Assembly: GCF_036321535.1 (NCBI RefSeq)
Contig: NC_087451.1
Location: forward strand, 41,540,001-41,604,000
Reading direction: 5' to 3'
Origin: Camelus dromedarius
Lineage: Eukaryota
Length of the DNA: 64,000 bases
Under the pieces are notes generated by a model. The model saw nothing but the letters and a program-made list of their open reading frames with translations, was not told the DNA's origin and searched no databases. Both the position numbers and the translations under genes were made by a program. Positions 8,445 through 59,919 of the stretch are shown here, in pieces (position 1 is the stretch's first letter; each line of letters begins with the position of its first letter).

Positions 8445-8640
8445 ACAAGGCCTTAGACTACAGCGCCTGGGTTTGAAATTCTCGCTCCACCACTCATTGG
8501 CTGTATGTGAACAAGTTACTTAGCCTCTCTGTGCCTCAGTAATAACTCTTACTTCCCAGGGCTGTTATGAGGACTAAATAAACTGATATTTGCAAAGCAG
8601 GTAGAACAGTGCCCAGCAAGTTGTATGTGCTACATAAATA
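8445..8640 (+). mobile_element. MIR
   Basis: cctgggtttgaaattctcgctccaccactc..caagttacttagcctctctgtgcctcagt..gggctgttatgaggactaaat. Confidence 0.75.
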
Positions 8641-9222
8641 AAAGGTAAAAGTAATTATTTAATTGAAATCAGCCTTAACTGCCCATTCATTCACTGCCTC
8701 TCATTCATTCAGTATATATTTACTGAGCACCACCTGAATTCATTAGGGTAGCTATACAGGCACACACACTCCCCTAGTAGGAGAAACACACACACAACAA
8801 CAGGAAAAAATATTTTTTTCTTTTAGGAAAGCATCATAATTCTAAGCAGAGATTTGCACATGATTCTAAGAAAGGTCAGAGAAAGAACATTTGCCTATTT
8901 CCATGTAAAGTCAAAAACAAAAGAAAAAATCTATGGTTCAGTCCTTTGAACTTATTGAAAATGTTGAATATCGTCTAACTGATTTGCGGATTTAGACCAA
9001 GGTTTGCGAATATAGACCACTAGCCTTTTGGAAAATATTCCCATTCAGTGCCATTTATCCAGCCTCTCTGGATGTTCTTCTTCCTCCCTTCCAGGGTCTC
9101 CTTGATCACCCAGAAAATAATCTCTGGGTTCACCCCCAGTCTTCAGTGGAGAAGAAGATACGGGTTCAATCAGATCAACCCTCAGTCATTTGAATAAACA
9201 ACTTATAAATATTCGGGAGAGG

Positions 9223-9257
9223 AGGGAGAGAAGGGAGAGAAGGGAGAGAAGGGAGAA
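9223..9257. repeat. (AGGGAGAGA) x about 4 polypurine tandem repeat at the edge of the CpG island
   Basis: agggagaga agggagaga agggagaga agggagaa. Confidence 0.9.
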
Positions 9258-10481
9258 AGCCTCAGAACCGGGAATGTCTCAACTGATGATCTAGCAGCAG
9301 GTGCGTTTTAAAGTCTTGGTGGTTTAATTCAAACCACTTTATGTATTGATATACGTATACTTGGTTTAATAACTGACGGAAAAATGAAATTCAGTCAGTA
9401 CGCTCCCCTCCCCCAAATCCATTCAATTCTTTTGAATGTAATCGCTTTTAAATGCTCTGAATCCAGTCGAGCTGGTGTCTGCTCCGGCGGTCCACACTGA
9501 CCCTGCGGATTCCGGATCCTCAGGCGGGAGCCTCTCCGGATTCCCCCGCGGCGGCTCCGAGGCCCACCTTCCCCTCCCTCCCTCTGCTGCCTCCTTGCCT
9601 ACACCCCGCCAGCCCAATCGTTTTGGGAATCGCTCTGCAAAGGGGAAGTGGGGGCTGTCACTAGCGGCGGACTCGGCTGTCGACCCCCTAATCTTTCCCC
9701 GGGCTCACGGGCAGTCCCCGCCGCCCCCGAACTTTAGCGAGCAGACGCTGGACGTGCGGCTTTCCTGGCGACTTTCCTAAACTCCGGGCGCCAGAATCGC
9801 GTCGCCAGAGCCGGGGCAGGAGCGAGCTGGCGCGGGGACCCGTGAGTGCAAAGGCTGGGAGAGCGAGAGCTGGGCTCCCGCGGGCGGGCCGGCGGCGGCG
9901 GAGGAACGGTAACCACCGCCGGATGCACCGTTTGCTCCCCAGAGATTGCGATATTGATTCAGGGCTCGAAGGCGCCGGGGACATTTATCTCCCTGGACTT
10001 GCAGAGGCTGGAAGGAGAGCCCAGGAACAGGGCGAAGGCGTGCAGAGTTGGAAAGCAGATGAGAGGGTGCTGGGGGCCGTGGGAAACCCCTCTCCAGAGC
10101 CTCCTACCCCGGGAACCTGGTTTACACGGGAGGGGTGGGAGGAGGAACAATGCATCGGTTCCCAAAGCCAAGAGCGATTCCCCGCGCAGAGCTGGTTAGC
10201 CGGGTGGGCGGACCCCCTCCTCCGCCAACATCCCGGCAGCTTCGCCACAACGATTTCTTTTCCCCTACCCTCAGAGTTCTCCCCCCACAGCCGAATGCCT
10301 GCTCCAAAGGTCCAGGAAGAGGGAGTTGGGCCGCCCTTCAAACCGCGGTCGCCCCCGGACCTCGGCACAGTTCTGCTCGGTGACACCCACCCCCTCCGCG
10401 TATCACACTCACAGCCCACCAAGCCCCGCGCGCCGGGAGCTGGGGGCGCCCGCGCTCGAACGCTGACCGGCTTGCTCTTAC

Positions 10482-10514
10482 CTTGACGAGCCGGAGCTGC
10501 GGGCGCCGTCCCAT
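10482..10514 (-). CDS. CRHR1: CRHR1 first coding exon segment (33 nt, MGRRPQLRLVK; start of the signal peptide of the class B GPCR CRF1)
   Basis: The minus strand reads ccgaggATGGGACGGCGCCCGCAGCTCCGGCTCGTCAAG|GTAAGAG: strong Kozak (A at -3, G at +4), 11 codons and a canonical phase-0 GTAAG donor at 10481. The peptide matches the recalled N-terminus of mammalian CRF1 (rat MGRRPQLRLVK, human MGGHPQLRLVK) and the known 33-nt coding part of exon 1. Confidence 0.95.
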
Positions 10515-10530
10515 CCTCGGGCTCGCTCCG

Positions 10531-10563
10531 TCACCGTCCTGGATACCTGGGTTCCTCGGACAT
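10531..10563 (-). CDS. Upstream ORF in the CRHR1 5'UTR, 10 aa (MSEEPRYPGR*)
   Basis: ATG TCC GAG GAA CCC AGG TAT CCA GGA CGG TGA, ending 16 nt before the main ATG, with G at -3. Confidence 0.8.
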   Translation of the reverse strand: MSEEPRYPGR

Positions 10564-11677
10564 CCCAGAGGGGGCGGCGGGCGGTTGCCGGCTCTGGCAG
10601 CGTGGAGTGGGCTGCCGGGCTCCTGTGTAGCTGCCCGGCGCTGAGGTGCCCGGCTCCGCGCTCTCGGGCCCCGCAGCCCGGCCCAGCAGGCTCTCGTCTC
10701 CTTCCCGGGCAAGTCCGGCCGCCGTTTCCCGACTCAGCCCGGCCAGCAGCTGCCTCTCGCCCGCGCGGAGCCCGCCTCGCCCCCGCCGCCTCCCCCTAGA
10801 TCCGCGCCGCTATTAGCCTCGGCTCCCCGCCCCCTCGCTTGGGCGTCCCCTTCCCTCCCCTTTTCTCTCCTCCCTTCCCCTCCGGTCCCTCCTCCTGGCC
10901 TCGCCCCTCTGCTCCCTCTCCCACCCCGCCTCCCCTGTCCCTTCCCCTTTCTGGGGCCGGCTTCCCGCGCCCTCACGGCGCTGACCCCCTTTCCCTGCGC
11001 CCGGGTTTGCGGCAATCGGCGGGGCGCGCTGGCAGTCCTGGCGGCCGCCGCAGCCCGGGGAGAAGCTGGAGACTGTAGGGCGGGGGTGGGGGGAGCGGGA
11101 GAGGAGCCAGCCTCCCGTCTCCAGCCCGATTTCAGGCTGGGGCCTGGAGAGTCCAAAGGAGTCTGGGGAGACTTGATGCGGGCATGTGAATCTCTAAGAA
11201 TGCAGCTATTGGAGGCTGGGGACTAGGGCAGCTCGGATTGAGCAGAGCTGCCACGTTAACCGGGTGAAGCTAGGAACTGCGTTCGGGCAGTTCCCGCCCT
11301 GAAGCCGGCCAGGAGAAGATCCCCGCCGCCCCTACTTCAGCAGGGCGGAGATGTTGGGCCCGATCCCCCGCGCTTTTTGCACTGATGTGCCAGGTGCGCG
11401 CAGAGACTCTAAAGCTCTGCGGAAGGAACCCTTCTCATTCATTCATTGTCATTCATTCATTCGTTCGTTCATCCATCCATTCATTCTACAAACTAAGCGA
11501 CCGTCCAGTTTGGTCCCGGCAAGGGGCTGAACCTGGGATCCCCAAGACGAGGGGAGATGGCGGTGCCCTGCAGAACTAGCGGGCGTCTGAAACCCGTGGA
11601 GGGGAAAGCCGAGCACGCATTGCGCTATTGAGGGGAAAGCAGTTAGGAATCCAACGGGCTTGGTGAGGAGGAGGCCA

Positions 11678-11693
11678 CAGCGCCCCCTCTCGG
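11678..11693 (-). promoter_or_regulatory. Candidate CTCF site about 1 kb upstream of the CRHR1 TSS
   Basis: Reverse complement CCGAGAGGGGGCGCTG versus the CTCF core CCACCAGGGGGCGCTG; the high-information AGGGGGCGC part is intact. Confidence 0.55.
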
Positions 11694-12524
11694 CAGAGCC
11701 CTCAGGGTAGGGTGAGCCGCTCCGACAGACCTCCCCGCCTTTATCCAGCTTGACTCCCTAGTTCCCAATTCCGTCCCCTGCTGGGCGAAGCAGCTCCCGC
11801 TTCCTCCAGCCCCTTAAACTCTCCCCTCCAGCCCTTCCAGTTGGACAGAACTTTTGCCTTCTCCTATCTTTCCCCTCCTCCTGCCGGAGCTGAAAAGGGA
11901 GGTAAAGAAATGACTACCCCACAGAGCCTCCTCGGCCTGCAGCGCCAACCGAAGCACCCCGAGCGGAGCACGGTCCCAGAGTGGTTGTCAGCCGGCGTTG
12001 TAATCAAACTCTGAACCTAACTGCCCTGGATTCTGTGTCCTGCTGCACCCCTGCCTCCTTCCCTCCACCCACATCTCATCACATTGAGCAAAAGCCGGTG
12101 CATTCATGGGTCCAACTGGTTCTTCGTTTAGGAGTTACTGTAAAAGGTCGTATGAGGAAACTGAGGCTCACAGAGAAGTGGTGACCGGTCCAAAGCTACA
12201 TAGCTGGTAAGCCTAGTCCACAGCCTCCTGATTCCCACCTCAAAGTGCCTTTTGAGCTGGACTCTGACGGGGATTGGGGCTCTGAAGTGGGGAGGAGCAG
12301 TGCCCAGGAAGCCATCTGGTCACTCTGCCTTAGCCATTGGGTGGCACTTTCTAAATGAAGCACACAGTCCCAAGTCTTGAAGAACCCCCAGCTGGTTAGT
12401 GTCCCAGAGGTGGTCATATTGAGCTTGGCACAGACTCACCCCAACCAATACCAGAAGAGACGGATGCACCAACCAGATTGCCAAATGCACTTTTCTCAAC
12501 AAAAATTAAATACAGAGTTGTCCA

Positions 12525-12745
12525 GTGTAGCACAGGTTCTGGAGTCAGCCTAAGTTTGAGTCTTAGCTCTTCCGCTTACACGCTGTATAAATCTGAAAAA
12601 TGATTTAATACTGCCTCATCTATAAAATAGGGGAAGGAATACCTACCTCACAGTGTTGTTGAGAGGTTTTAGAAAGTTAATAATTGTAAATGACTTGGAA
12701 CGGTGTCCAGCACATAGCAAGGGCTTATTGAAGGTTACCTGTAAT
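12525..12745 (+). mobile_element. MIR
   Basis: ggttctggagtcag..cctcatctataaaatagg..acctacctcacagtgttgttgagagg..cagcacatag. Confidence 0.75.
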
Positions 12746-13889
12746 CACCATCATCATCATCATCATCAAGTGGACCAGATGCTCAAATGCATGGGCAGCA
12801 CAGCCCCTCCCTCTAGGCAGTGTAAAGCAGAGTTCTTGATTAGAAGGTAACAGCAGCAATGGACTATGGAAACAGTGGAGAGGGAGCTGGCGGGTCCTCA
12901 GGGAGGTTTGCCCAGGCCCTGCAGAGGCCTTGCTCCCCAGCCCTACTTGACCTTGGAGCTGACTCTCCAGGGACCAGACAGTTCCAGATTTCCAGATTCT
13001 GTTTCTCTCTGCTTAATAAACACAATTTCACCTTTCTGAGCCCCTTCACCCTCCCCTTGACATGATCTTTAAATATGCTAATGCTATCGATTAGGCTGTA
13101 ATCAAGTCTTGCTCTTCTGGCTTTTTTAGACCTTCTCTTTCTAAAGGAGCATCTACCTAAAGGGGCATCTATAGATTTCACATTTCACATTTCACCCCCT
13201 CCCAGTTGACTATGTTGATTTCATTGACTTAACCTCCACATTCCCCCCACCCCAGGTAAAAAGAGGAGCCTTCTGTATCACTCCATTACGTTCTTATTTA
13301 TAGTTTTGGCCTTGACCATCCCAGGGAGGTTATGAGAGGCTCATGTTTAACACCCCTTCTGTAAAAGTATCCCATATCCCCTTTCATTTGTCCTGAAATT
13401 GCTTCTTTCCACCTTCAAGAGCCCAGCTCTCATCTGCTCAGCTTGGTGAGGATGCCAGGGCCCAGGGCCTTCCCTGCATTTCCTCCCCTCAGCCCCAGCC
13501 ACTCCAGCCAACCAGCTCAATGGCTCAGGATGTACTCCTTAGGCAGCCTCTCCAACCCTCCTCAGGACACCTCCTGCTCCATCTCAGCATCCTCTTCCCA
13601 GCCAGACCCCTCCCAAACTCTTTGACCCCTCCCTTACTCTTTCCTCTTCCTGTCCAGGCCCAGACCAAAGTCAGCTTTCATTCAGTGAACCTGACAGATT
13701 TGAAAGAAAAGAGAAATATGAGGAATCTAAATCAGAATAAAAGACAATTCCACGTCCTTCCAAACAGTAGGAGAGACAGATAGGAGAACAAATAGTAATG
13801 GGTGGGACCCAGCAAAGGAGGGCTGAGCACGCCCCCTCTGCCTGTGGGGTTTTGTTGGCTTTAACCATGGGCATCCCAGTGAGGTTGAT

Positions 13890-17320: not shown

Positions 17321-17509
17321 ATGCGACAGTTGCCTGGGCCCACTTACAGAGTATGCAGACCAGGGTTTCCAAATCATTTTTTGTAGAACCTTAAGATTGC
17401 AAAAAGATACTTCAGGGACTGATGCTCGAGATGGGGGTGGGAGGAGGAAGCGGTGATAAGGAGACTGGGGAGAAGGCTCTGAGGCTACACTTTTGTTTGA
17501 ACCAGTTTT

Positions 17510-17658
17510 TTTTTTTTTTAAATTTATTATTTTTTTTTGTAGGGGGAGGTAATTAGGTCTATTTGCTTATTTATTTTTAGAGGATGTGCCGGGGATTGAA
17601 CCCAGGACCTCATGCATGCTAAGCTTGCGCTCTACCACTTGAGATATACCTTCTCCCC
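17510..17658 (-). mobile_element. Camelid tRNA-derived SINE (Vic-1-like)
   Basis: Poly-T, gggggaggtaattagg, ggggattgaacccaggacc (B box), ctctaccacttgagatatacc. Perfect TSD TTGAACCAGTTTT (17497-17509 and 17659-17671). Confidence 0.92.
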
Positions 17659-20189
17659 TTGAACCAGTTTTATACCCTGGAGTTGTACAGGAGATCTCAT
17701 TTTGGGAAAAGGGTTTTTCTCAGAAAAGAAAGCAATTTTTCTAAGACCAGGTGGGTTGTGGCAGAGCTGGACAGAGCCCCGTCTTCTGACTCTGACTCCT
17801 GCACTCTGCACTGCACCACACGGCTGTCCTCAGGCCTGGCTGATGCCCCACAGGACTCAGGGGACCTGAGGCCTAGGTTTAGTGAGCCAACCCAAGATGA
17901 GGGATGGGCCACGCCCCGCCTGCCCTGAGGTGCCCCAGTGGACATGAAGCTTCCATGGGCCACTTATTGCTTGATATCCAAAGTCAGGCCTGTGGCTCAG
18001 AGCCAGCCTCAGCCTTGCTGGCTGCCATCTGGCCAAGCCCCAGGGGCTCACCTGGATGGGAGCCAGAACCTCCAGGCATTCCTGAACTAGAGAAGTGCTG
18101 ACCAGGGCTCAGCCCACCCGCCACATATCAGCCCACCCCAGAAGAAGGCCTGGTGCTTGCCCCTTCCCAAGTCTCTACTGCATGAGAGGACTTTTGGAAG
18201 CTGGCCAGATGGTTCCATCTGGATGTGGTCAGGAGCAAGGGGTGATAAAGGCTGAAGTTATTGGGTCCCACCAGCAGGTCATGTTGAGGAGGAACACAGA
18301 GGGCTCCTGAGTCCGAGGCAGAGAAGGGGAGAAAGAGGGGAAATTACCTGAGACACGTAGGAAATCCATTCACAGGAAACAGCCTGATAGGACTCCTGAG
18401 CTCACAGAGGAAGATTAGGCGTGTTGGCGATGAAGGAGGCCGTGCTGGCTGTGCACAGGATCTCCCATTTGCCCCTCCACACCCACCCTCCACCTTTCCC
18501 TACCTGCTGTCCACCCCATGCCACTGGTGTGAACTGCACCAATGGGCTGCCTCACCCTCCCACTTCCCGTTGGGTTTAGCCAATAGGAAGCCCCAGCTGC
18601 AGATCAGCAGCAGGGAGGTGACATGGGGTATTTAACCCACCAGCTGTCTCCCTGGGGGGTGGCCATGGGCAGGCTGTGTCCCTTGACAGGGGGTCCTGGA
18701 TACTGTCATGGCAGCCTCTCTGCATCACTCTCCTTCAGGGTTCTGGTAATCTTGCCCTCTTCCCACCCGCTCTCTAGCCCCATGATCCTTGTGGTTTCCC
18801 CATCCTGTGCAAATCTTTCTAAACAATCTCTTTAATAAACCCATCTCAATTAGCCAGGTTCAGATAGGCTATTCATTTCCTTGCGAAGAACTTGATTGAT
18901 GCAGGCTGCTTAGAATCTGAGTTTGCAAATGTGATTGCACAATGAATCTTTTTTTGTGAGTAACCCTAGTGAACTAGAGGGTTGATGAGGCCTCCCTGGG
19001 GGGCCTGACTGGACAGAGAGGGCAAAAGGTGAAGGCAGGATGTGAGGCAACCAAAACAAATGAGCAGACACCCCAGAGGAGGGCATCTGGCTAGAGGTGT
19101 GGTTGGTAAATGTATCAGGAGGAGACCTGAGGGTCTTCCGCAAACCTCACTGGAAGGATATTGTTATGGGGCAGGGAAGGGCTGGAGGTGGAGGGGTCCA
19201 GGGAAAATAGCAGCGAGGCTAGGCTCTGCCCGTCTCTCTCTAGCTGTGCTAAGAAAGACAGCTGTGCACAGCACAACTTCATGGGTGCCCTGGGGGCCTG
19301 GGCCTATGGCTGCTGAACTCCCAAGGATGAGCCCCATTGGCTGGACAAGAAATTCCTGCCCAACCTACCTTCCTCTCCTTGCTCTGAGTTCCCCTGGAAG
19401 CAACCTGCTGGAGCCAGAATGAATCCTGGACACTGCCAAGCTCCCTGCCTTGGCACTTTTCCTCAAGCTGTGCCAGCTGCTTGGAGTGCTCTGACCCTCT
19501 CCAGGACAGCTAGACTCACTCCTGAACTGCCACAGCACTCCAGGACAGCCCACCTCTCTCCTCCATCAGTTCCCATCTTACATTAGGGATGTGTTGGCAA
19601 ATTTGCCTGCCAGCCCTTGCCCAGTCATCCACTTGCCGTGTGATTTTGGGCAAGTCAGGTCTCCTCTTTGGATTTTAGTTTCCCTGTCTGTGAAAGGGCA
19701 GTGGTAGTGATGGTATATTAGGGAAAGTCTCCTGCGCTTTGCAGACTTGCATAAATCCACGGATCGATGTCTTCTGTCCCACTGATAGACGATGCCAAAG
19801 TAGAGAGCACGCTTCACTCATTCATTCTGGTATTCCCCACGGCACCTAGCAGAGGGGCCCAGTGGGTAAGGGTTGGTGGATGGGTGGTGGGTGGATGATA
19901 AATCTCCCTAGAGTGGAGAAAGGCAATTCATTCCATGGCTCTAAGTTAATAGAAATGTCCCCTGGGAACGTCCCACCTCCTGACTAATCCTGCATGGTCT
20001 CATTTGTTACCTTTCCTGAGCAGGCCATCCCTTGAAAGATGCATCAAGAACCAGCAATAATTGTTATCCTTTAGAGGAACACAAGACCATTGACCACAGT
20101 TACTTCTGGTGTGTGAGCTTGGGGGTCTTGGGAGAAAAAAACAAATGTTCCTTGTATTTCCTTGTGTTCTCTTTGGATTATTTTTAAAA

Positions 20190-20341
20190 GGGTATTAATT
20201 TTTTTTTTTTTTTTTTTTTTTGGCGAGGGAGGTAATTAGGCTTATTTACTTATTTATTCTTAGAGGAGGCATTGGGAATTGAACCCAGGACCTCATGCAT
20301 GCTAAGCATGTGCTCTACTACTTGACCTATATCCTCCTCCC
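20190..20341 (-). mobile_element. Camelid tRNA-derived SINE (Vic-1-like)
   Basis: Same architecture with a long T tract. Near-perfect TSD of about 20 bp: ctctttggattatttttaaaa (20169-20189) / ctctttgggttattttaaaa (20342-20361). Confidence 0.92.
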
Positions 20342-22598
20342 CTCTTTGGGTTATTTTAAAATCCATAAGTCACTTTTAAAACATAAAGAAGTCCTTTTGG
20401 AAAAAAGTCATAATTTTTTATGACTTAAAGAATTTTTTAAAGTCATGATAATTATCTGTTTGGTTTCCAAGGAGGGGAATTGGATAGTTGAGGATTGAAG
20501 CAGGTGGGGAGCAGGGAGGAGACTCATTGGTCAGCTTATATCCTTTGGTACCTTTGGACTTTTGTACCATGTGTATTCATCATCTATTAAAAAATAAATA
20601 CAAATTGAGAAATCACTAACCCATATATGGATATTCTTACAGAGAAATGAGGCCCTTTCACATGCAGTAGCTTACTTAACCTTCATCACAACCCTAAGTA
20701 GCCATTATTATCCCTATTTTCAGATGAGGAAACCAAGACTCATAGAGGATTAAAGGTTTGCTCAAGTTCCTTAGTTGGTGTGTTGTGGCATTGAGACTTA
20801 CACTCTGGGTTTCTAATCCTAAAGTAAGCTGCCACTGAGGCTTAGCTTGCCAAATATACTTGCATTACAGGAAAACAAATTGGCATTTTGATGTATGACT
20901 CAGTCTCTAGAAGGTTTGTTTAGTGTGAGTCATTCCCACTGAGCTCTGTCTCATTGGAGGCAGCCAAAATAACAAAGTTCCCAATGCTGCAAAGTTGAGG
21001 CAGAGACACAGTGGGCTCCCCAGGGCTGAGGAGACCCCAGTAAAATACAGACATGAGCGGATCCCCAGGCCCCCATCACACTTCAGCTCCTCATCTGGCC
21101 TCTTTATCTTTGGAAATTTTACCTTAAACCTCACTCTCTCCAGGAAGCTTTTACTGACACCCAAGGCTAGCTCTTTGGGCTTCCCCTTGCCATTCAAAAC
21201 ACCCATGTCCAAAGTCTTGTTTCCCTGCTACACCCTAAGCTCTGTGCCTTGTTCACAAGTACCCTCTAGCACAGCTAGCCCTGGGCCTGGTACACAGCAG
21301 GAACTCAATAAATACTTGTCAAATCAATGAATAAACCAATGGCCAGGTCCTTACTCTCCTGGGCTGATCACAGGTGCACGAGTGCAGGCAGGTGGCCACA
21401 GTGGATGGGCCCAGATGACTCCTCAGGTGTTCGTGCTTGCTAACTCCAAGTCTCTGGCAGAGGAGGGGTTGTGGGCAAAGTAGCCACTCATCTTGTCAAC
21501 GAATGAGTGTTTGCCCTTTCCAGGCTGCCCAGCCCCCAGCCCAAATACCCCATAAGGCCCAGGGACTTGGGGGTGGGGGTGCTCTGGTGGGTGGATGAGC
21601 CACGGGCCCCTCCCTGAGGTGCAGGTTCCAGCGTGGCTGAGCTCTGGGGGGTTGGGGGGAGTTGAGGTGGCAGTGGAGGGGGAGGGAGCTGTGGGAAGCC
21701 TCAAATGGCTCCTAGCCACCCCTGAGTAGTGTCACCTCTGATATTAACTCGGCGGAGCTGTGTCCAAATTGCTCATTTCTGAGTCGCCACCTTTCTCATC
21801 TCTCCCTCTATACATCCCTGCCTCACCTCTCTGACCTCCCAAGCTGAGCCACTTCTTCCACAATGACAGGAAGAAACGGAGGCAGAGGGAGACTGAGTTC
21901 CATTCTCTCTGGAGCTTGTTCAGATTTTCAATGAGCCATGGCCCGGCTCTCACCCTGACACCAGGCCCTCAGGGCCCCAGCCCATCCTCCCTCTGACATC
22001 CCCTCCCTGGCGGGCTCCTCCCCTCCTCCAGCCTCCCCTCCTCCCTTCCCGCCCTCACTCCGACTCAGCCACAGGATATCTGCGCCCCGGCGAATGAATT
22101 TCAGCGTTCCGGAAACCCTGGGAAAGCCCAGCCCCACTGGTGAGCTAAAGCTGACTTGGTCTCCAAGCCGAGCTGCTGTATTTATTAACCCTTCACTCCA
22201 GCAAGACCGTCATTGACTCCGCAAATGCTTTCTCATCATTATTCCAACACAACCTTTATTAGGCACCTGTTATGGAGGAAGCTTCATGGGAGGAGGGGGC
22301 AGTGGGGCTGGGGACACAGCCCTCTTCCTCGTGGGTGTACGGTCTTGCAGGAGCAGCTGCAGTGTAAAGGGCTCTGTGCGAGACAAAGGTCGCCTCTGTG
22401 AAGCCAGCAGAGCTGCGGTCTGGTCTGGGTCTTGCCGCCAGCCAGCTGTGTGACCTTGAGTTACTTCCTTCTTCTCTCTGGACCTTGGTAATTCTATTTG
22501 TAAAATAAGGAGTTGAACTAGGACAGCATTTTCCCAACTGTAGTTTGCAATCCATTACAGGATGGTAAAATACATTTAATGAGTCAGAACCAGCATTC

Positions 22599-36190: not shown

Positions 36191-36687
36191 CTGTTGATCT
36201 GCCTGGTCCCCTCAAACCTCTGAGGTACAATGACCAAACACACAAATACCCACTTAAGCTGAATCCTCTATTTCTCAGGACCACCCAACTCTTGTAAATC
36301 AGGCTTTCGGCCTGTGGGAGTTAGTGATGCCTATGACCCTGGCATCTTTCTGTGTCCCCCTCATCCCGCTGTAGTGTCCAAGCTCCTGGACTCTAGGAGA
36401 GGACCTCTACCTGCAAATGAGAAATCTCTGCCCAGAAAATTAGCCATGAACCCTGATGTGCCAGAGCTAGAAGGAACCTTGAGATCTTTAGTCCAACCCT
36501 CTCACTTTACAGAGAGAGTAGAGACCTGCCCAAGGGCTGGTGTTGGAATCTGGTTTTCCAGACTCTCACCTCACAGTTCTTATTCTACACACTGCCCACT
36601 ACACAATGGATGCTCTTGGCTGAATAACTGAATGACTCAGGGGCTGAATAGATGGATGGATGAATGGATGGATGGGTGGGTTGCTTC

Positions 36688-37154
36688 TATCAACTGAAAA
36701 TTGGCACTTGCCCTTACCTCTGCTTGGATGAAATCATGAATCACTGCAGCCACTGACCTCCAACACTCTTTGAAAAGAATTCAGGGTGGAGGTCAGAATG
36801 ATTCACTCCATGCTCTGGGAAAACTGATGGAACAGACCTTCGATACTTGGATATTTCCAGGAGAAGATTTTCTGAGCACGAATTCTTACATCTCCTCAAA
36901 TCTAGAAAAGCACTAAAATCATTAACAGTGACAGCTGCTCCTCAGGACTAGCAGCAAGCCTCTGCCTAAATGTGTGCTTGACTGCACGTGTCCCCCCTTC
37001 ACTAAAATCATACATAATATTGAGTTCCCACATCTATTTGGAGCAGTTTCTCAGAGCTTTCTGAAATGTGGTCTCCCACGCTATAGTCCTTATTTTACCC
37101 CAAATAAAATTTAACCAACAGCTCTCACGTTGTGTGATTTTATTTCAGTCGACA
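36688..37154 (+). mobile_element. 5' LTR (467 bp)
   Basis: Starts TATCAACTGAAAATTGGCAC and ends GTCGACA; AATAAA at 37103-37108; aligns end to end with the 3' LTR. Confidence 0.9.
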
Positions 37155-37158
37155 GTTT

Positions 37159-37176
37159 TGGTGACCACAAAGGGAC
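37159..37176 (+). other. Retroviral primer-binding site complementary to tRNA-Arg(TCG)
   Basis: TGGTGACCACAAAGGGAC differs from TGGCGACCACGAAGGGAC (complement of the recalled tRNA-Arg-TCG 3' end GTCCCTTCGTGGTCGCCA) only by two CpG-type transitions. It starts 5 nt after the LTR end. Confidence 0.8.
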
Positions 37177-37437
37177 CGAGAGCAGACTTCTCTCCTTCAC
37201 CTGAACTCTAAGAGGAACCAGAGCCTTGGTGCCAGCAGAGGCCACTTGTGCCCATCAGCCTACTCAAAGAGTCCAGGTGAATTTTAGTAAGTCTCTCCTG
37301 GTTCTCAGATCTCTCATATTGGTTGATGATCTTGACTTTCATTTGGCAGTGTTAACAGGTACCTGCCCCCCCACCCCAGTTGAGAGATACTGGGGAGAAA
37401 TACTCACCCAGTGGAGACATATGGGGGGGGGGCCTGG

Positions 37438-38250
37438 GTGAAATACACCAGGGAAATTCCCACCCCATGGAGAGGCACCTGAGGCCACTGTGAAATATAC
37501 TAGGGAAATTCCCACCCTGTGGAGGGGCACCTGAGGCCACTGTGAAATACACTAGGGAAATTCCCACCCTGTGGAGGGGCACCTGAGGCCTGTGTGAAAT
37601 ATACTAGGGAAATTCCCACCCTGTGGAGGGGCACCTGAGGCGACTGGGAAATATACTAGGGAAATTCCCACCCTGTGGAGGGGCACCTGAGGCCACTGTG
37701 AAATATACTAGGGAAAGTCCCACCCTGTGGAGGGGCACCTGAGGCCACTGTGAAATATACTAGGGAAAGTCCCACCCTGTGGAGGGGCACCTGAGGCCAC
37801 TGTGAAATATACTAGGGAAAGTCCCACCCTGTGGAGGGGCACCTGAGGCCACTGTGAAATATACTAGGGAAAGTCCCACCCTGTGGAGGGGCACCTGAGG
37901 CCACTGTGAAATATACTAGGGAAAGTCCCACCCTGTGGAGGGGCACCTGAGGCCACTGTGAAATATACTAGGGAAATTCCCACCCTGTGGAGGGGCACCT
38001 GAGGCCTCTGTGAAATACACTAGGGAAATTCCCACCCTGTGGAGAGGCATGTGGGGGCCTGTGTGAAATATACCAGGGAAATTCCCACCCTGTGGAGAGG
38101 CATGTGGGGGCCTGTGTGAAATATACCAGGGAAATTCCCACCCTGTGGAGGGGCACCTGAGGCCTCTGAAATATACTAGGGAAGTTCCCACCCTGTGGAG
38201 AGGCACCTGAGGCCTGTGTGAAATATACTAGGGAAATACCCATCCTGTGG
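37438..38250 (+). repeat. 52-bp minisatellite, about 15.6 copies, in the ERV leader
   Basis: Consensus GTGAAATATACTAGGGAAA(T/G)TCCCACCCTGTGGAGGGGCACCTGAGGCCACT. Unit starts at 37438, 37490, 37542, 37594, 37646, 37698, 37750, 37802, 37854, 37906, 37958, 38010, 38063, 38116, 38168 and 38218 (partial). Confidence 0.97.
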
Positions 38251-38398
38251 GGAGGTAGGGAAGAAAACAGACAAGACTCTGGCTTTCTCAGGCAACTGAG
38301 AAATTAGGAGAGTGGTGGAGGCAGATTTCTCATACTGTGCTGTAGTCTGTGTGGTAGTCCCAATAGGAAACCCACTCATTAATTAAGAGTCTCATCTA

Positions 38399-38550
38399 GA
38401 GGGGGGAGGGTATAGCTGAAGTGGTGGAGTGCTTGCTTAGCATCCACAAGGTCCTGGGTTCAATCCCCAGTATTTCCTCTAACTAACTAACTAAATAAAC
38501 CAAATTATCTCCTTCCACAAAAAATAAAAAATAAATAAAAACTTAAAAAA
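38399..38550 (+). mobile_element. Camelid tRNA-derived SINE (Vic-1-like) nested in the ERV
   Basis: Head ggggagggtatagctgaagtggtggagtgc...ggtcctgggttcaatccccag (A and B boxes) and A-rich tail. TSD aagagtctcatcta (38385-38398) / aagagttactcatcta (38551-38566). Confidence 0.9.
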
Positions 38551-38766
38551 AAGAGTTACTCATCTACGGGTCACGTATAAGAATTGATTATTCAGTGATC
38601 CAAGCACCTGTGGTGGTCTGAGACCATTGAAGGGAGAAAATGAGCCACGTAAGAGGGCTGAAACGACTCTGGGGTGATGCCTAGATGAGTTAAGCTCACA
38701 AGGAGCACATTGGCCCACCTCACAACTTCATTAGTAAATTTTATCCTTGACAAATTCAACTTTAAA

Positions 38767-38950
38767 ACGGGAAATAGAACCTCGCAAACACAGAAACAAG
38801 AGGCATCAGAAAGCCAGCCTCCGACGAACACCCTAGCCAGGGTTATGTACATAGAAAATTTATACTTGCAAGTACTTACTTAATTGGGAATTAAAGGAAA
38901 TTTTGCCCTGAAAATGGACAAAAGGGGCTTTTATTGCATATACAGTTAGA
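38767..38950 (+). pseudogene. Decayed gag (matrix) N-terminal remnant of the ERV
   Basis: aaaACGGGAAATAGAACCTCG... translates as (M>T)GNRTSQTQKQEASESQPPTNTLARVMY. This is an MGxxxS myristoylation-like start, followed by frameshifted CKYL..W and ..W.KG.F motifs resembling gamma-like matrix. Confidence 0.5.
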
Positions 38951-40875
38951 GAAAGCTAGCTTGGAAAAAAGACTCTTCAGCATCCTGACACTGAGAGAAC
39001 AAGTCCTCCTAGGAGAACTTGCTTTTCTCTCCCTGTGCTTTGAGACCAAGGTTCTCAGGAACACTTATCTAGACCATCTCTAATTCCTGAGACTGCAAGA
39101 CAAAGAAATGGGGAGAGAGAGAAGAAGCTTTTTAAAATTTAGCTTATTCCAACTGTTAAAACTAGTGTTTATATTGCAGTACCTAATTCATGACCAAGTT
39201 TAGAAAATGAAGCTATGAGGTCTCTAGTTGTGTCTATCTATATGTCTAGGTGTGTATTATATATGTCGTTACCCTTGGATGGTATTATCAAATTTAATTT
39301 GTAAATGAGCTGTACTTAATTGGCTTAAAGGAAATTAAGCACTTATCTCACTTCTGAGAAGTAAAAGGAAACTGTCCAGAATGAATTTCAGGTTCACGTG
39401 AACTGAGAAATATTCAGTATTAAATTAATACCTGGCATTAAAGTTCACTGATTTAATTAATATAAACATGTCTTTAGAGTCATCAACATTAAGTACAATA
39501 CCTTTGTTGTACCTAGGTTTAACAGTTCTGTCAAATAAGATCTTATTATATCTGTTGCAAATCTGTCAGCAAGAAAAATAATTTGGTATGATGAAATTTT
39601 TGTAAGTAAATTGAAGGCAAATGAGGGAAGAGCTTTTAGATAAGTTCTTTAGGAGTAATTATGTTTTAGGAATGTCTACTTAAAAATAACTTTTCCATAT
39701 ATTTGGTAAGTCAAAATTTTAGAGTTGTGCTAAATTAAGCTAAATGATGGGAGCTTATTAAATAATAGCTAGGTCATTCCCAAAATAAACTAAGATGCTG
39801 AAACATTAATTACTGATTATTGGCTTCCTTTTGTAGGGAAACTAAAGGGTTTTAGGACTATTAATAAATACATTTAGTGACAAATTGAGATATTTTCTAT
39901 AACAAAGCACATGGTTTATGTTTGCCAATCTATAGAATGTTTATGTATAAGACAGTTCATAATTGCTTACTTCTTAGTTTTCACTGGAAATTGAGGTTTT
40001 TAAGAGTTTTTTTTTTAAGAGTTTAAAGCTCTGTTTTAAATATTTAATTAAAGCCACTAGGAGAAATAAAAGAAATATTTCAGTATACAGTAGGAAAGTA
40101 GGATGTGTTTTTTCAGTAAAGAAGTTATGAGGAATGGAATTGCATTTTAAGGGAAAAGAAAAGTAGGTTTATTCTATAGCTGGTTATTTCTGGATGGGAA
40201 AGAAATAAGGGGCAAACTAATATGGATACAGAAAGTGATGGAAGGTTTATGGAAAAGGAACCCTGAGAAGAGAGTGTTGTGCATGGAAAGCATTGACTAA
40301 GTTAGAATAAATTTAATTGAATAAATAAAGTGTTTAAAGAAAGCTGGTGCAAAACTTGAATTTAGCTTTTCTTTCTGTTAAGAGGACAAATTTTTCTAAA
40401 AATGTTGATCTGTTTTTGATAACAGATTATAAAATTTCTTTTACGTTTAATCAGAAATCCATTATAACTTTCCATATTTGCCTTTGAAATCTTTTATTAT
40501 CATTTTGGCTAAGTGAATAAGAATTGTTTTACTGTGACCTATGATCCTATCTGACCAAGTGTTTTAAAACCTTTTTGGTATTTTTCCCAAATCAAATTTT
40601 AATGAAGTTTCTTTAACCTCTAGCTAACTTTAGGATGCTTCAAAGGGCTCCTGAAACATCTCAGAGAGAGATATTAAACTAGTCAGATTCATTTGGTAAG
40701 TTAAATTGCATAGGAAGTATTGTCAAATAAGTAATCTTAGGTTGTGTTAGGGAAAATAGTATTATATAAATTCTATCTTCACCTGACCTAGGAATAAGCA
40801 TTCCTAGCACTGCGGGACCAAATGGTCATGAAATGCCTCCCAAACCATGGTCGAATTTATGACCATGGGGGGCCC

Positions 40876-41346
40876 TACCAACTAAAAATTGGCACTTGCC
40901 ATCTACCTCTGCTTGGATGAAATCATGAACCCTGCAGCCACTGACCTCCAACACTTCCTGAAAGGAGTCAGGATGGAGGTGAGGAATGAAGCACTCTGTG
41001 CTCTGGGAAAACTGGTGGAACAGGCCTTCAGATACTTAAATGTTTGCAGGAGAAAATTTTATGAGCCCGAATTTCTTGCATCTCCTCCTATCTAGAAAAG
41101 CACTAAAATCACTAACGGTGACATCTGCTCCTCATGACTAGCAGCAAGCCTCTGCCTAAATGTGGACTTGACTGCATGGGCCCCCCCTTCACTAAAATCA
41201 TATATAATATTGAGTTTCCCCATCTCTTTGTAGCAGTTTCTCAGAGCTATCTGAAATACTGTCTCCTGGACTATAGTCTTCATTTCGCCCCAAATAAAAC
41301 CTAACCCACAGACTCTCACATTGTGTGATTTTTATTTCAGTCGACA
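40876..41346 (+). mobile_element. 3' LTR (471 bp)
   Basis: Starts TACCAACTAAAAATTGGCAC and ends GTCGACA; TATATAA at 41201-41207 and AATAAA at 41293-41298; roughly 85% identical to the 5' LTR by eye. Confidence 0.9.
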
Positions 41347-42049
41347 CTTCATATGTTTAGAAAAGGAACAAGGACATTGTCCTGGTTTCCTGCAGTGTGG
41401 TTAGCTCCACAGACCCTACCTAGGAAAGGTATCGGTAAATCAAATGATCAATTAGACACTACCCAGAAGTGCATAACACACTACACAGCTGGGACCAAAT
41501 TGGCTTTGGGAACAGCAAACTGTGCCAGACCAATTTAGTTTGCTCTCCAGTGATAGAGTGACGGGCTTTACTGGTGAGGGGCAAGGAGGAGTTGTCATCT
41601 ATCTTGATTTCAGGGCGGCTGTTAGTTCTGTTCTACATGACATTCTCATCAACTTGCCAAGAAAACACTGTCTGTTCCAGCTTCCCCCCAGGGGTGGACA
41701 AGCAGCCTGAACCTTCAAGTCCGAGGCCCTGTCTCCATGTCAATTCCTCATGGGCGTTGGGCTCCCAGCCAGACACTGGCTGTGAATGCCTTCACGCTGG
41801 GGCTTTCCTGGGTGTTCACACGCTGAAAACACAGAGAGGTCTGGATGCAGACATGCATGTATACGGCCACATGAATATACACATGTTCTTGCAAACATTC
41901 ATGTGTCACACTGAGATCAGCATGACAAGTATGGGCCATGCATAAGCCCAAGGGGGCTGGCAGTTAAGCTTGAGGGTGTAGGGGGAGGGGAATACAGGGT
42001 AGAGCTGAACTGTCATTCAAGTGCTAGATCAGTGGCTTGCACAGAGACA

Positions 42050-42810
42050 GAGACAGAATTCAAGGGACATAAAAAATTTAAAATTTTCTAGCAGCTACAT
42101 TTATAAAATAAAAAAAAACCCAAAACAGATGAAATTAAAAAATTTTTTTGCTCTTTGCCTTCTGTATTAACTCAACATATCCTAAGTATGATCATTTCAA
42201 CATGTAGTCAATTTTAATAACTGAGATTTAAAAATTATTTTACTTATGCATTTTTAAATTTTTAAAAAGTTTTATTTGGGGGGAGGTAATTAGGCTTATT
42301 TATTTATTTATTTTATTATTATTATTTTTAGTGGTTACTGGGGATTGAACCCAGATCTTGTGCATGCTAAGCACATGCTCTACCACTGAGCTATACCCTC
42401 CCTCCTAATTTATTTTTTAAATGGAGGCATAGGGGATTGAACCCAGGACCTCAAGCATGCTAAGCGTGTGCTCTACCACTGAGCTATACTCACCCCGCCC
42501 CAATTTTATTCTTTTTAAAATTTTGTACATAGTCTTCAAAATCCAATGAGTATTTTACACTTTATACTGAAACTCAGTGTGGACGCTAAATTCAGACACA
42601 AATGTTTTTGTTTGGATATATCAGATCTGCGTTTGGATTCGTTAAATTGACAGTTGAAAAGTTAGGTTCACATACCCAAATTGTTCCTAATATATTTTAA
42701 AGTTTTCCAGTAACTGAATCCACTATCAGTTTTTCAATTTAATGTTCATAAGTGAAATTAAAATTTTGGTTCCCAGTCGCAATAGCCACATTCCAACTGC
42801 TCAGTAGTCA
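42050..42810. mobile_element. hAT-Charlie (MER33/MER3-like) DNA transposon relic, interrupted by the SINE dimer
   Basis: Segments atcatttcaacatgtagtcaat, agtcttcaaaatccaatgagtattttacac and aatagccacattccaactgctcagtagtcatg resemble MER33/MER3. Confidence 0.6.
42250..42501 (-). mobile_element. Head-to-tail dimer of Vic-1-like SINEs
   Basis: Two tRNA-like heads (about 42425-42501 and 42335-42405), each with ggggattgaaccca..catgctaagc..ctctaccactgagctata; only the downstream monomer carries the cctaattacctcccc tail. Confidence 0.85.
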
Positions 42811-46529: not shown

Positions 46530-46578
46530 GAGGGAGCTGATCAGGAAGGGGAGGGAGCTGATCAGGAAGGGGAGGGAG
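46530..46578. repeat. 21-bp tandem duplication (GAGGGAGCTGATCAGGAAGGG x2.3)
   Basis: Direct reading. Confidence 0.9.
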
Positions 46579-49500
46579 AGGGGATTTAGCAGTCACAGAA
46601 CTCCTGTCATGTCTGGGGATTTTGCTGGGAGCTCTGGTTTTCTCATTTAATCCTCAAAGAGCTCTAGGAGGGAGGCACTATAATCATGGTCATTTCACAA
46701 ATGAGGGAGGTGGGACTTAGGGCAGAAGGTAGTTGTAGACCTCAGGGCTGTAGATCTGGGATCCAAACCCACAGCTGGAACTGGGCCCAGGGTGAAGGCT
46801 GAATTTCAATGGAAGCAAGATCACAGGCAACTTGAGTTTGAATCTATGGACCCTTTAAATCCTCATCTGTGAACAGGATCAGAAGGAGAGCCTGGGGATG
46901 GGGTGACCCTGCAGATGGAGGCTGAGCAGTCCCATTGTGGGATGGGGGAGTGCTGGAGGGGCAGAGAGATGGGCAGGACTTTGAGGCCTGTGGGGTCTAT
47001 TTCGCAGTGGTTGGTACAAGATCTAAACATCAAGATTTGTTAACCCATCTGCCAGCTCAGCACGGGTTCCCAGAGTAGCAGCTCCCAGGCAACAAGGAAT
47101 GAGCAGGAGACAGTTGTGGAGGCTAGTGGAAGGGGACACTTTGGCCTCTACGGACAGTGCACTTGAACCTGTCCAGTCTCTCTCCCACCACCTACTTCCT
47201 GGTCCTCCTTCCTCCTTCCCTCCAACCTGCAGCCACCTCCCCAATCACTCTTACTTCTCTCACCAACACTCTGTACCTTTATCTTCCGAAATCACTCCCT
47301 TCTTCCTCCTACTGGCATCCGAGGCCCAGTGAGGTGCCTCACCGGCCTGGAGACACACAGCCAGTCCACTGCCAGGACCTGTCTCCAAGCATCCTGAGAC
47401 CCTGTTCCCCACCCCATCGTCCTAGTCAGTTGCCTCATCCTGGGGCTGGAGTCAAGGCCTGTCTTCTTTTTCCTCCTCCACAGGGGAGGTGGTACAGCCT
47501 TATAAAATGACAATGTTTGTCTTCTCAGTTATAGGCAAGAGCACTGACTGGCTTTTATAGAAACTTCACAGCTCAGGGGAATGCGCCCTATCTTCAATCT
47601 CCCCAAGCTGTGAAACCAAAACACAGAAACAAAGGCCCTTCCTCAGAGGCCCTTAATCTCCGGGCCAATCATGGTCAAGGAGCCCTCTCTCCCTGATCAC
47701 ACCTGCCAGACTCAGGTTTAAAGCTGAGGGCACAGCAGACAAAGAGGGCAGCAGAGCAGGTGAAGACAGAGTGATTGTGTTGCCTGTTCAGTCCTGCGGT
47801 CCCAGCCAGCTGGGAGGGGTGAGGGGTTCTGTTTCACTGTACTTGGCACAAGGTCTACACATCAAGACTTGTTAATTCACCTGCCAGCTCAGCATGGGGC
47901 TCCAGGGCCAGGGGCACCTGTGCTAGGAGGAGGGAGCGGGAGACAGTGGTGGTGGTGGAGGGCCACATTGCAGAATAACAGAGGGGTAAACACCAGCTTT
48001 AGCATCAGAGGATACCCTCCCCGCTCCCTTTTCCCCTGATGAAGGTGGGGCTTAGGGGTGGAGGGTAGAGACACTGTGGTCTCAGCCTCCCTTCATGAGA
48101 ACAGACCCCAAACCCTGGCTCTCCCACCCTGCTGCCTGCCCTGTGATCGGGCAAGCTATTCCCAGGAGTCCCCTGGGATTTCCCAAATGAGCACATGGGC
48201 CTCCTAGTTTGGGTTAGGCGGTCTGCTCTGGTATTTGCAGTGAATGAGGATGTCACAAATTGGAGATCCAACTTTGGTGCTGAGTAACTCCCAGTCTTGA
48301 TGATCGTCATCTGTCACCCTCATTAACAGGTGCTTCCTGGTCTCATGCAGCTGCATGTGACAAATATGGCAGGTACATCCACCCAAAACCCTGGGCGAGG
48401 AGCTTCCCGTGGGGCTGGAGGATAGGGCGAGGCAAGACTTCCGCTGAAAGAGTTCCCACCCAGCCCTGCTGTCCCTCTCGGCCGGCACCTGTGCTTAGAA
48501 GAACGTGTAGCGAGGCGCTGTGGCCAAGGAGTCAACACTGGACTTTGGTATTGGATGAACTGGGTTCAAATCTTGGCTCTGCCACTTCCTGCGGGTAACC
48601 TGATCTCTCTGAGCTGCCATGTCCCTATCTGTAGGAAGGTGAGATGAGAACAGTTTCACAGCTTCCAGCAGATCAAGTGAAGTCAAGCTGTAAAGCCCCT
48701 AGTACACAGAGCCATCTGCACATGGTATTACCAAGATGTCGCATGGGGCAGAGCACAGAGAGTGTTGGACAAATGCTGCCTCATGAGAATGAGAAAATTC
48801 TAGGCTGGCAGCACCTTTTCTGACAACCAGGGAAGCATCTCCCTCTATCATTATTCTTGGAAAGACCCTTGGAGCATCTCTGGAAGTTCGAGGTACCTCA
48901 CCTCCCAGAGGAGAAAGGGAGAAAGGAAAGGGTGCTGCTTCATGCACTCAGGAACCCGGGCTCCCAGCAGGCCCCCAGCAGTAGCAAGGGTGGTCTGCTG
49001 ATGTGCCCAGGGCGGACATGGATGTTCCCTTGGAGGAGCTGGAAACTACCGAGTTCCTCTCACACAGACTCTGTAATGATGTCTGGAGCAGATGGCAAGG
49101 GTGGGTGTTCTCAGCTGGGCTGAGAGAGCCTCATTTGCCTGGAAATTCCCTCCAGTCCTAGGGAATCCCTTCCAGATGTTCTCACCCACAGCCTGGTTGA
49201 ACAAGAGCAGTGAGAAGCTGAAGAGTCAGAGCTGGAAAGCTGAGCCAGCCTTATATATAGACAAAGAAGGCAGCCACCCATAAGGCCAGACCAGTGGCCC
49301 TACTGCTCTCAAGTACCTGCCTATCACCACTTATACCAATTCAGGACTCCACTATTAGATAGCCATTCCTTTGGATAAGTCATTCCATCTCTGGGAGTTC
49401 TCTTTCACACTTTAATCTCCCTGCAAGTGGTAACACATACACCCTTGCCTCTCAAACTATATTCCAGTGACACTGGGCATCACTTGTTAGGCTCTCATCA

Positions 49501-59067: not shown

Positions 59068-59401
59068 TCAGGCCACAAGTGCCAGAGCCCCTGGTTCTTC
59101 TCCCTGCAGGCTGGAAGGGCTAGCAGGTGAATCCCTTCCACCTGCGGATACAGCCACTCAGATGCCAGTTCTGTGGCTTATCGCCTAAATTGCAGCCTAA
59201 ACCTCCCTTCTTCCTGTCCGCGCACTCTGTTAGTTCAGGCCACAAGTGCCAGAGCCCCTGGTTCTTCTCCCTGCAGGCTGGAAGGGCTAGCAGGTGAATC
59301 CCTTCCACCTGCGGATACAGCCACTCAGATGCCAGTTCTGTGGCTTATCGCCTAAATTGCAGCCTAAACCTCCCTTCTTCCTGTCCGCGCACTCTGTTAG
59401 T
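59068..59401. repeat. Perfect 167-bp direct tandem duplication (59068-59234 and 59235-59401)
   Basis: The two copies are identical as read; TCA microhomology at the junction (59402-59404 repeats the first 3 nt). Confidence 0.95.
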
Positions 59402-59919
59402 TCAATGAAGCTCCGCGTGCCTGTGAACGTTGGCAGCTGGCAGTCAGCCCAAGGATCCAGAGTAGCTGGCTCATCCCTACTCCCTCTCTTGAGAGAGCAG
59501 CAACTAGAATCTTCCTGCCTAAAGCACCTTCCTTGGCTCTGCTCTGGGCAGCCCATGGCACTGGCCTGGGCCTCCCTGTGCTGGACCCAGTATGGATCCT
59601 CCGCCCCCACCTCAAGGCTCCAGCCTTCTGAAGACTATGCAGAGGGTCCAGGAGAGGGATGGGGGGTGGGCCTGAGTAAATATTTGAGAGTTGAGGAGAA
59701 ATTGGGTCTCTTGCTACCACTGCACAGTTCCCACCTTTTTTTCCTGCAGCCTCTGCCTTCTGGCTCCCTAGTTACACCAGAACCTACACTTCCTGGGGCG
59801 CCTGCATACAGGTTCTGTGCCACATACTTAACCTGCATTGTCTCCTAGCATCCTCAACACACAACCTCCATTCTATGGATGAGAAAATGGAGAATGAAAT
59901 AGATAAAGAATCAGAGAAA

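Follow-up and report, generated by a model that had tools for sequence, protein, structure and literature searches.

The locus and its LTR element

The window analysed here (the whole stretch of camel DNA, 64 kb in length) contains an LTR element of 4,659 bp (36688–41346; 4.66 kb), within which a 52-bp minisatellite begins 284 bp downstream of the 5′ LTR, and, back to back with this element, a minus-strand exon that is likely exon 1 of CRHR1, the element pointing away from the gene (table 1). The location of the array in an ERV leader, as proposed in an initial reading of the DNA (the sequence-only reading), is borne out by its position within the leader of an LTR-paired element.

Table 1. Features of the window discussed in the text, in order of position.
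Feature	Position	Strand	Remarks
First-exon coding part, MGRRPQLRLVK then GT donor	10482..10514	-	inside CpG island
Left target-site duplication CTTC	36684..36687	+	4 bp
5′ LTR, 467 bp	36688..37154	+	AATAAA at 37103; no TATA-like match; no kB consensus
Primer-binding site	37159..37176	+	16 of 18 bases as in a published HERV9-type site (compared by eye)
Decayed unit ahead of the array	37382..37439	+	closest to units 12–13; without consensus kB site
Minisatellite, 15.6 copies	37438..38250	+	a kB motif in every unit; 10 different sequences among the 15 complete units
AT-rich interior	38251..40875	+	GC 34%; no Pfam gag/pol/env match
tRNA-derived SINE within the interior	38398..38552	+	78–85% like copies at 17506–17659, 20195–20345, 42336–42496
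3′ LTR, 471 bp	40876..41346	+	TATA-like match at 41201; AATAAA at 41293
Right target-site duplication CTTC	41347..41350	+	4 bp

The two LTRs are paired in direct orientation and are 12.3% apart (57 substitutions in 465 aligned columns; K2P distance 0.135, or 0.111 without CpG columns). Both of them end with CA and neither starts with TG, the 12-base inverted repeat at their termini showing 2 and 4 mismatches. The primer-binding site starts 4 bases past the 5′ LTR, and where a polypurine tract would be expected there is only a run of six G, which ends 3 bases ahead of the 3′ LTR. A 4-bp target-site duplication is the rule for class I elements, and the duplication found here, along with the HERV9-type primer site, would assign the element to class I (ERV1). 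The presence of CTTC on both sides is also within the 4–6 bp range indicated for target-site duplications in the available text of PMC11905727, where the HERV9-type primer site is assigned to tRNA-Arg, with an assignment to tRNA-Trp in that of PMC4724089.

Pfam searches of the six frames of the element, at a sensitivity lowered by frameshifts, yielded no family in five of them and, in the sixth, a single DUF6111 match below its cut-off (E 0.086). With no gag, pol or env homology detected, the element is an ERV remnant and not an autonomous provirus. The CpG observed/expected ratio, which is between 0.05 and 0.30 across the parts of the element, suggests long germ-line methylation. No second copy of the element was found elsewhere in the 64-kb window, and an Rfam scan of positions 30000–64000 returned two tRNA-like SINE heads and no other structured RNA. 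The tRNA-derived SINE, which we take to be Vic-1-like, is found outside the element at 17506–17659, 20195–20345 and 42251–42496, with two head sections adjacent at 42330–42493.

Other repeats of the window are an 82-bp direct repeat (46992–47073 and 47824–47905, 79% alike and 832 bp apart), a perfect 21-bp repeat in 2.3 copies at 46530–46578 and a perfect 167-bp tandem duplicate at 59068–59404 (2.0 copies, 100%), the latter pointing either to duplication in the very recent past or to an artefact of the assembly. The window also includes 701 N bases in four runs, in which gaps and masking are indistinguishable and which were therefore left aside in judging the quality of the assembly, and its end lies 25.8 kb from the array.

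Anatomy of the array

Tandem Repeats Finder describes the array with a period of 52 and 93% matches, and its head-to-tail units are well inside the 10–100 bp that define a minisatellite. Fifteen complete units are indeed present, as initially reported; their length is not the uniform 52 bp then indicated, this value being found in 12 of the 15 units, with 53 bp for units 12 and 13 and 50 bp for unit 14. Each complete unit contains one kB motif, the first starting at 37451 and the fifteenth at 38179: GGGAAATTCCC in nine units (1–5 and 11–14), GGGAAAGTCCC in five (6–10) and GGGAAGTTCCC in unit 15. A partial sixteenth unit adds GGGAAATACCC at 38231. The E2-box CACCTG is found in 13 of the 15 units, with CATGTG replacing it in units 12 and 13, and the only CpG of the array is in unit 4. 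The 9/5/1 distribution of the motifs, the 13 E2-boxes and the single CpG had all been given by the sequence-only reading, and the unit-by-unit recount reproduced them exactly. It was also observed that a CANNTG box is kept in 15 of 15 units, with differing inner bases, and appears as CATATG in the decayed first unit; some CANNTG is present in 27% of background 52-mers.

The decayed unit ahead of the array shares 41 of 53 aligned bases with unit 12, a score that was reached by none of 500 shuffles. Both of the 11-mers tested from it are absent from the list of canonical NF-kB sites described below.

Quality of the kB motifs and chance expectation

All four variants found in the array, that of the partial sixteenth unit included, are among the 4,399 canonical NF-kB 11-mers listed in PMC3218832, a PWM-derived set, in agreement with their initial description as consensus sites. 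According to the available text of that paper, the list was computed from a TRANSFAC matrix and 72–84% of its members were enriched in EMSA-Seq; the four array 11-mers are present only in the computed list and were not found in the paper's microarray table. Their best MATCH values are 0.993, 0.881 (1.0 on the forward strand), 0.885 and 0.916. Furthermore, the GGGAAAGTCCC variant of units 6–10 falls within a p65 EMSA probe of PMC6353211, as far as its text is available.

The background was estimated from 60,000 random 52-mers drawn from the rest of the window. A kB consensus was found in 1.8% (loose) or 1.1% (strict) of them, an E2-box in 6.2%, the two together (a pair chosen post hoc) in 0.11%, and one of six inducible motifs in 6.9%. 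The array itself is not due to chance, yet a single motif was copied to give all 15, so that the kB unit counts once in the chance estimate. By taking into account the tens of thousands of mammalian minisatellites (for human VNTRs, 35,638 loci are given in the available text of PMC8096271) and the background kB rate, hundreds of minisatellites with a kB site are therefore to be expected.

History of the array and of its host element

The five outer unit types (1, 2, 12, 14 and 15) differ on average by 10.5%, a value near the 12.3% of the LTR pair, so that several kB-bearing units were likely present at or near insertion. Units 2–11 differ by 3.3% and units 6–10, which form a 260-bp block, are identical, pointing to a later amplification of one interior unit type. 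The difference between units also rises with distance along the array, from 2.9 for neighbours to about 5–7 for units at least seven apart, as expected for local duplication.

With the camel substitution rate of 5e-9 per year, as used in the available text of PMC8605555, the element would be 13.5 My old, and 22–45 My old with assumed rates of 3 to 1.5e-9. The 95% bound on the age of the identical 260-bp block is <2.3 My at 5e-9, <5.2 My at 2.2e-9 and <11.5 My at 1e-9, and the probability that such a block stayed unchanged since insertion is 2e-8. The identity of units 6–10 inside an element with such diverged LTRs is a sign of recent expansion. The overall pattern likely arose in the host through slippage or unequal exchange, and variation in array length would be probable, provided that the assembly is correct.

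Spacing, CpG content and conservation of the motif

The kB sites had been proposed to be phased on one face of the helix. The resultant R of their positions is 0.95 at 10.4 bp per turn, 0.46 at 10.5, 0.22 at 10.6 and 0.15 at 10.2, so that the proposal is true only at 10.4 bp per turn; moreover, of all periods between 20 and 100 bp, 25% come within 0.1 turn of an integer when 10.5 bp per turn is used. Helical phasing was rejected as a sign of design, R being determined by the value of bp per turn that is chosen.

The scarcity of CpG, which the sequence-only reading had taken as a special feature, turns out to be ordinary, with 58% of the 60,000 background 52-mers and 52% of 30,000 GC-matched non-island 52-mers having none, and was also rejected as a sign of design on account of its frequency among the GC-matched 52-mers. 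At one pair of columns, unit 1 has CA where the remaining 14 units have TG, namely the two products of methyl-CpG decay, which this pair resembles. The lack of CpG in the array thus probably records past methylation. Silencing of ERVs by H3K9me3 does not need local CpGs.

Of 53 columns, 16 are variable, two of them among the 11 columns of the motif, a difference that is not significant (P=0.28) and is judged with low power from 16 variable columns. All changes within the motif fall in its centre. The loose kB consensus survives 17 of the 33 possible single changes, and the probability that five old unit lineages would all have retained it is 0.17–0.23.

The neighbouring gene

The only CpG island of the window (about 9300–11800) holds the exon encoding MGRRPQLRLVK, an 11-residue N-terminus that we take to be that of CRHR1. 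This N-terminus, the GT donor and the CpG island make it likely that the minus-strand exon is the first of CRHR1. From the ATG at 10514 to the array there are 26,924 bp (26.9 kb), so that the distance of approximately 27 kb initially assigned to the array upstream of CRHR1 is correct, and the name of the gene depends on these 11 residues; the peptide was absent from the literature matches listed for it. The further proposal that the array could act on CRHR1 was not supported, distance being the sole link between the two.

A single consensus kB site, GGGAAACCCC, is found at 10081–10090, in intron 1 of the likely CRHR1 and within the CpG island, and is the only one in the 8501–13000 interval. 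CTCF-like matches at no more than 2 mismatches from a 14-base consensus number 16, 7 of which lie between exon 1 and the array; these matches were set aside as evidence of an insulator for lack of a shuffle control.

Sequence and literature searches

Metagenome scans with the LTR end plus primer site, and with the repeat unit, gave 0 matches each. A viral scan gave one match, a single 20-mer in L001, where no 52-bp repeat is present, and it was taken as due to chance. When region 36300–41700 was searched against SRA, 16 of the 24 listed runs, from organism A and 7 studies, were found to carry 0.69–0.77 of the sampled words. Four RNA or possibly-RNA runs carry 0.08–0.17 of them, values that are evidence neither of expression nor of copy number; the array by itself would hardly account for shares of 0.15–0.17, since it makes up 9.1% of the distinct 31-mers of the query. 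That the DNA runs reach only 0.69–0.77 may reflect another species or breed, contig dropout or an assembly error. The literature search, in which the coverage of subscription papers was sparse, found nothing on the locus or on any kB minisatellite in an ERV leader.

Interpretation

The best explanation of the data, with a probability of about 0.6, is that the array is a passenger VNTR on which NF-kB likely docks without affecting CRHR1. A short array of a few kB-bearing units probably arrived with the provirus, and its middle probably expanded recently by slippage or unequal exchange. NF-kB binding at the array would then be a sink rather than part of a CRHR1 enhancer, because nothing ties the array to CRHR1 and the motif is without significant constraint. 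The decayed first unit, which has no kB motif, counts toward the same conclusion.

Binding of NF-kB dimers to the naked DNA of the array is predicted with high confidence, and the odds that in stimulated cells the array is bound as closed, nucleosome-covered chromatin are put slightly below even. Clustered kB sites are reportedly bound non-cooperatively (Giorgetti 2010), a point given no weight here. For human endothelial cells, the available text of PMC7835376 reports 31% of RELA binding at constitutively closed regions with about 4 motifs per peak, so that a stack of 15 sites may be bound even if closed. For RELA sites derived from transposable elements, the available text of PMC12212084 takes non-function as the null and mentions a proposal that Alu sites serve for inert docking.

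Counter to a mere passenger are the canonical nature of all variants, the central position of all changes within the motif, the CANNTG box of every unit and the rarity of the kB plus E2-box pair in the background, this pair being post hoc. Furthermore, multiple motifs characterize inflammatory enhancers, and some of the closed RELA regions carry H3K27ac and are enriched near target genes (PMC7835376, available text), so that binding at closed regions is not always inert; in LTR10 the number of motifs correlates with the ChIP signal (PMC466953, available text). The inert repeat that the sequence-only reading had put forward as the alternative to an enhancer is about as good an account as the evidence allows, enhancer activity being neither shown nor excluded.

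A different origin of the motifs, possible at a modest probability, is that the kB repeat was a cis-element of a retroelement family, which aided its transcription when mobile, in which case many camelid copies would carry the repeat and this locus would be a single fossil among them. Each of the five outer unit types contains the motif, and they are nearly as diverged as the LTRs, which points to several kB units at insertion; large clusters of short, ORF-less ERV1 elements are described in alpaca in the available text of PMC8605555. However, the decayed first unit lacks a consensus site, no second copy is present in the window, the two metagenome scans gave 0 matches, and an RNA-structure role is unsupported. 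The latter was considered in the form of a hairpin or packaging role and rejected, with z between −0.81 and +0.93 in eight of eight folds. The block of units 6–10 may also have been inflated or homogenized by the assembly, in which case the true array would have fewer or more varied units and the extent of its recent expansion would be overstated; 260 bp of perfect repeat exceed the length of a short read, and the window has the perfect 167-bp tandem duplicate at 59068–59404 as well. This is rather improbable, given that 10 of the 15 units are distinct and that ordered blocks of variants are not made by simple collapse, and the array would even so retain at least 10 motifs. The family cis-element and the assembly effect are both compatible with a passenger array.

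Activity in the present genome is weighed lower than a role in the mobile family. It seems unlikely that the array acts locally as an inducible element without a target gene, opened by RelA and giving a short or LTR-started non-coding RNA directed away from CRHR1. The 284 bp between the 5′ LTR and the array would suit it, the orientation of the element implies that an LTR transcript would not enter the gene, and TNF can lead to the opening of multi-motif regions (9% of RELA peaks in the available text of PMC7835376); the 5′ LTR, however, has neither a TATA-like match nor a kB consensus, and the low CpG ratio suggests long germ-line methylation. An even lower probability, below that given to the assembly effect, is assigned to a co-opted inflammatory enhancer of CRHR1, where RelA recruited by TNF or LPS would act through a 27-kb loop to the promoter and copy number would tune the response. 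For it speak the 15–16 canonical kB sites, the fact that the likely CRHR1 has the only CpG-island promoter of the window and would be the obvious target of an active array, and the precedents of the LTR10 elements with AP-1 VNTRs, validated by CRISPR (PMC466953), and of a RELA-bound MER81 tested at IFNGR2 (PMC12212084), both as given in the available texts. Against it are the non-significant constraint, a phasing that hangs on the helical value and the ordinary lack of CpG; among the literature matches listed, none points to a distal kB enhancer of CRHR1 and, in the available text of PMC466953, an effect of VNTR length on regulation was not demonstrated even for LTR10. The broadest proposal, and by a shade the least credible, would have a camelid ERV family with leader VNTRs as copy-number-variable NF-kB enhancers, the counterpart of LTR10, with this copy making CRHR1 inflammation-inducible and allele length tuning the stress axis.

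If the array is neutral, as in the preferred passenger reading, it neatly illustrates how the expansion of a repeat can pile up transcription-factor motifs that have no function, and it warns that 15 sites may amount to a single event. An active array would serve as a naturally occurring NF-kB reporter of variable length, connected to the main CRH receptor in one lineage of mammals; it would tie inflammation to the stress axis in a way that can be tested, and might provide a trait marker for camelids. Neutral or active, the array offers a cheap and natural way to test whether the number of motifs by itself opens an old, methylated ERV, and the most valuable question about it is whether the kB unit is family-wide.

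Comparison with known systems

The host element resembles the alpaca ERV1 clusters (Ibrahim et al. 2021, PMC8605555) in being a camelid LTR element, here of 4.7 kb, without detectable retroviral protein domains, a likeness by description only; the main text of that paper makes no use of the word 'tandem'. With the bovine Bov-tA SINEs and MER81 (Wang et al. 2025, PMC12212084, available text) the array shares the status of lineage-specific repeat DNA with NF-kB motifs in an artiodactyl genome, most of which is expected to be non-functional. Those elements are dispersed, have one or two motifs each and are supported by ChIP, whereas the camel array is a tandem stack of 15–16 motifs in one element.

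Like the HRAS1 minisatellite, the camel array is a minisatellite near a gene with units that offer NF-kB sites. The HRAS1 repeat is not known to derive from an ERV and lies close downstream of its gene. It is human, and its binding by rel/NF-kB proteins has been reported (Trepicchio and Krontiris 1992, as cited in the available text of PMC8096271), whereas binding to the camel array is only predicted.

The closest precedent is the set of AP-1 VNTRs of human LTR10A/LTR10F (HERV-I; Ivancevic et al. 2024, PMC466953, available text). These differ from the camel array in the length of the unit (28–30 bp rather than 52 bp), in their location inside LTR10 elements rather than in the leader after the primer site, in the factor (AP-1 instead of NF-kB) and in number (about 990 elements in three subfamilies instead of one locus), and they have been studied by ChIP, CRISPR and population indel data, the camel array being known here from its sequence alone. 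In both systems a fixed ERV contains a tandem repeat, each unit of which bears one motif for an inducible factor, so that the number of motifs follows the number of copies.
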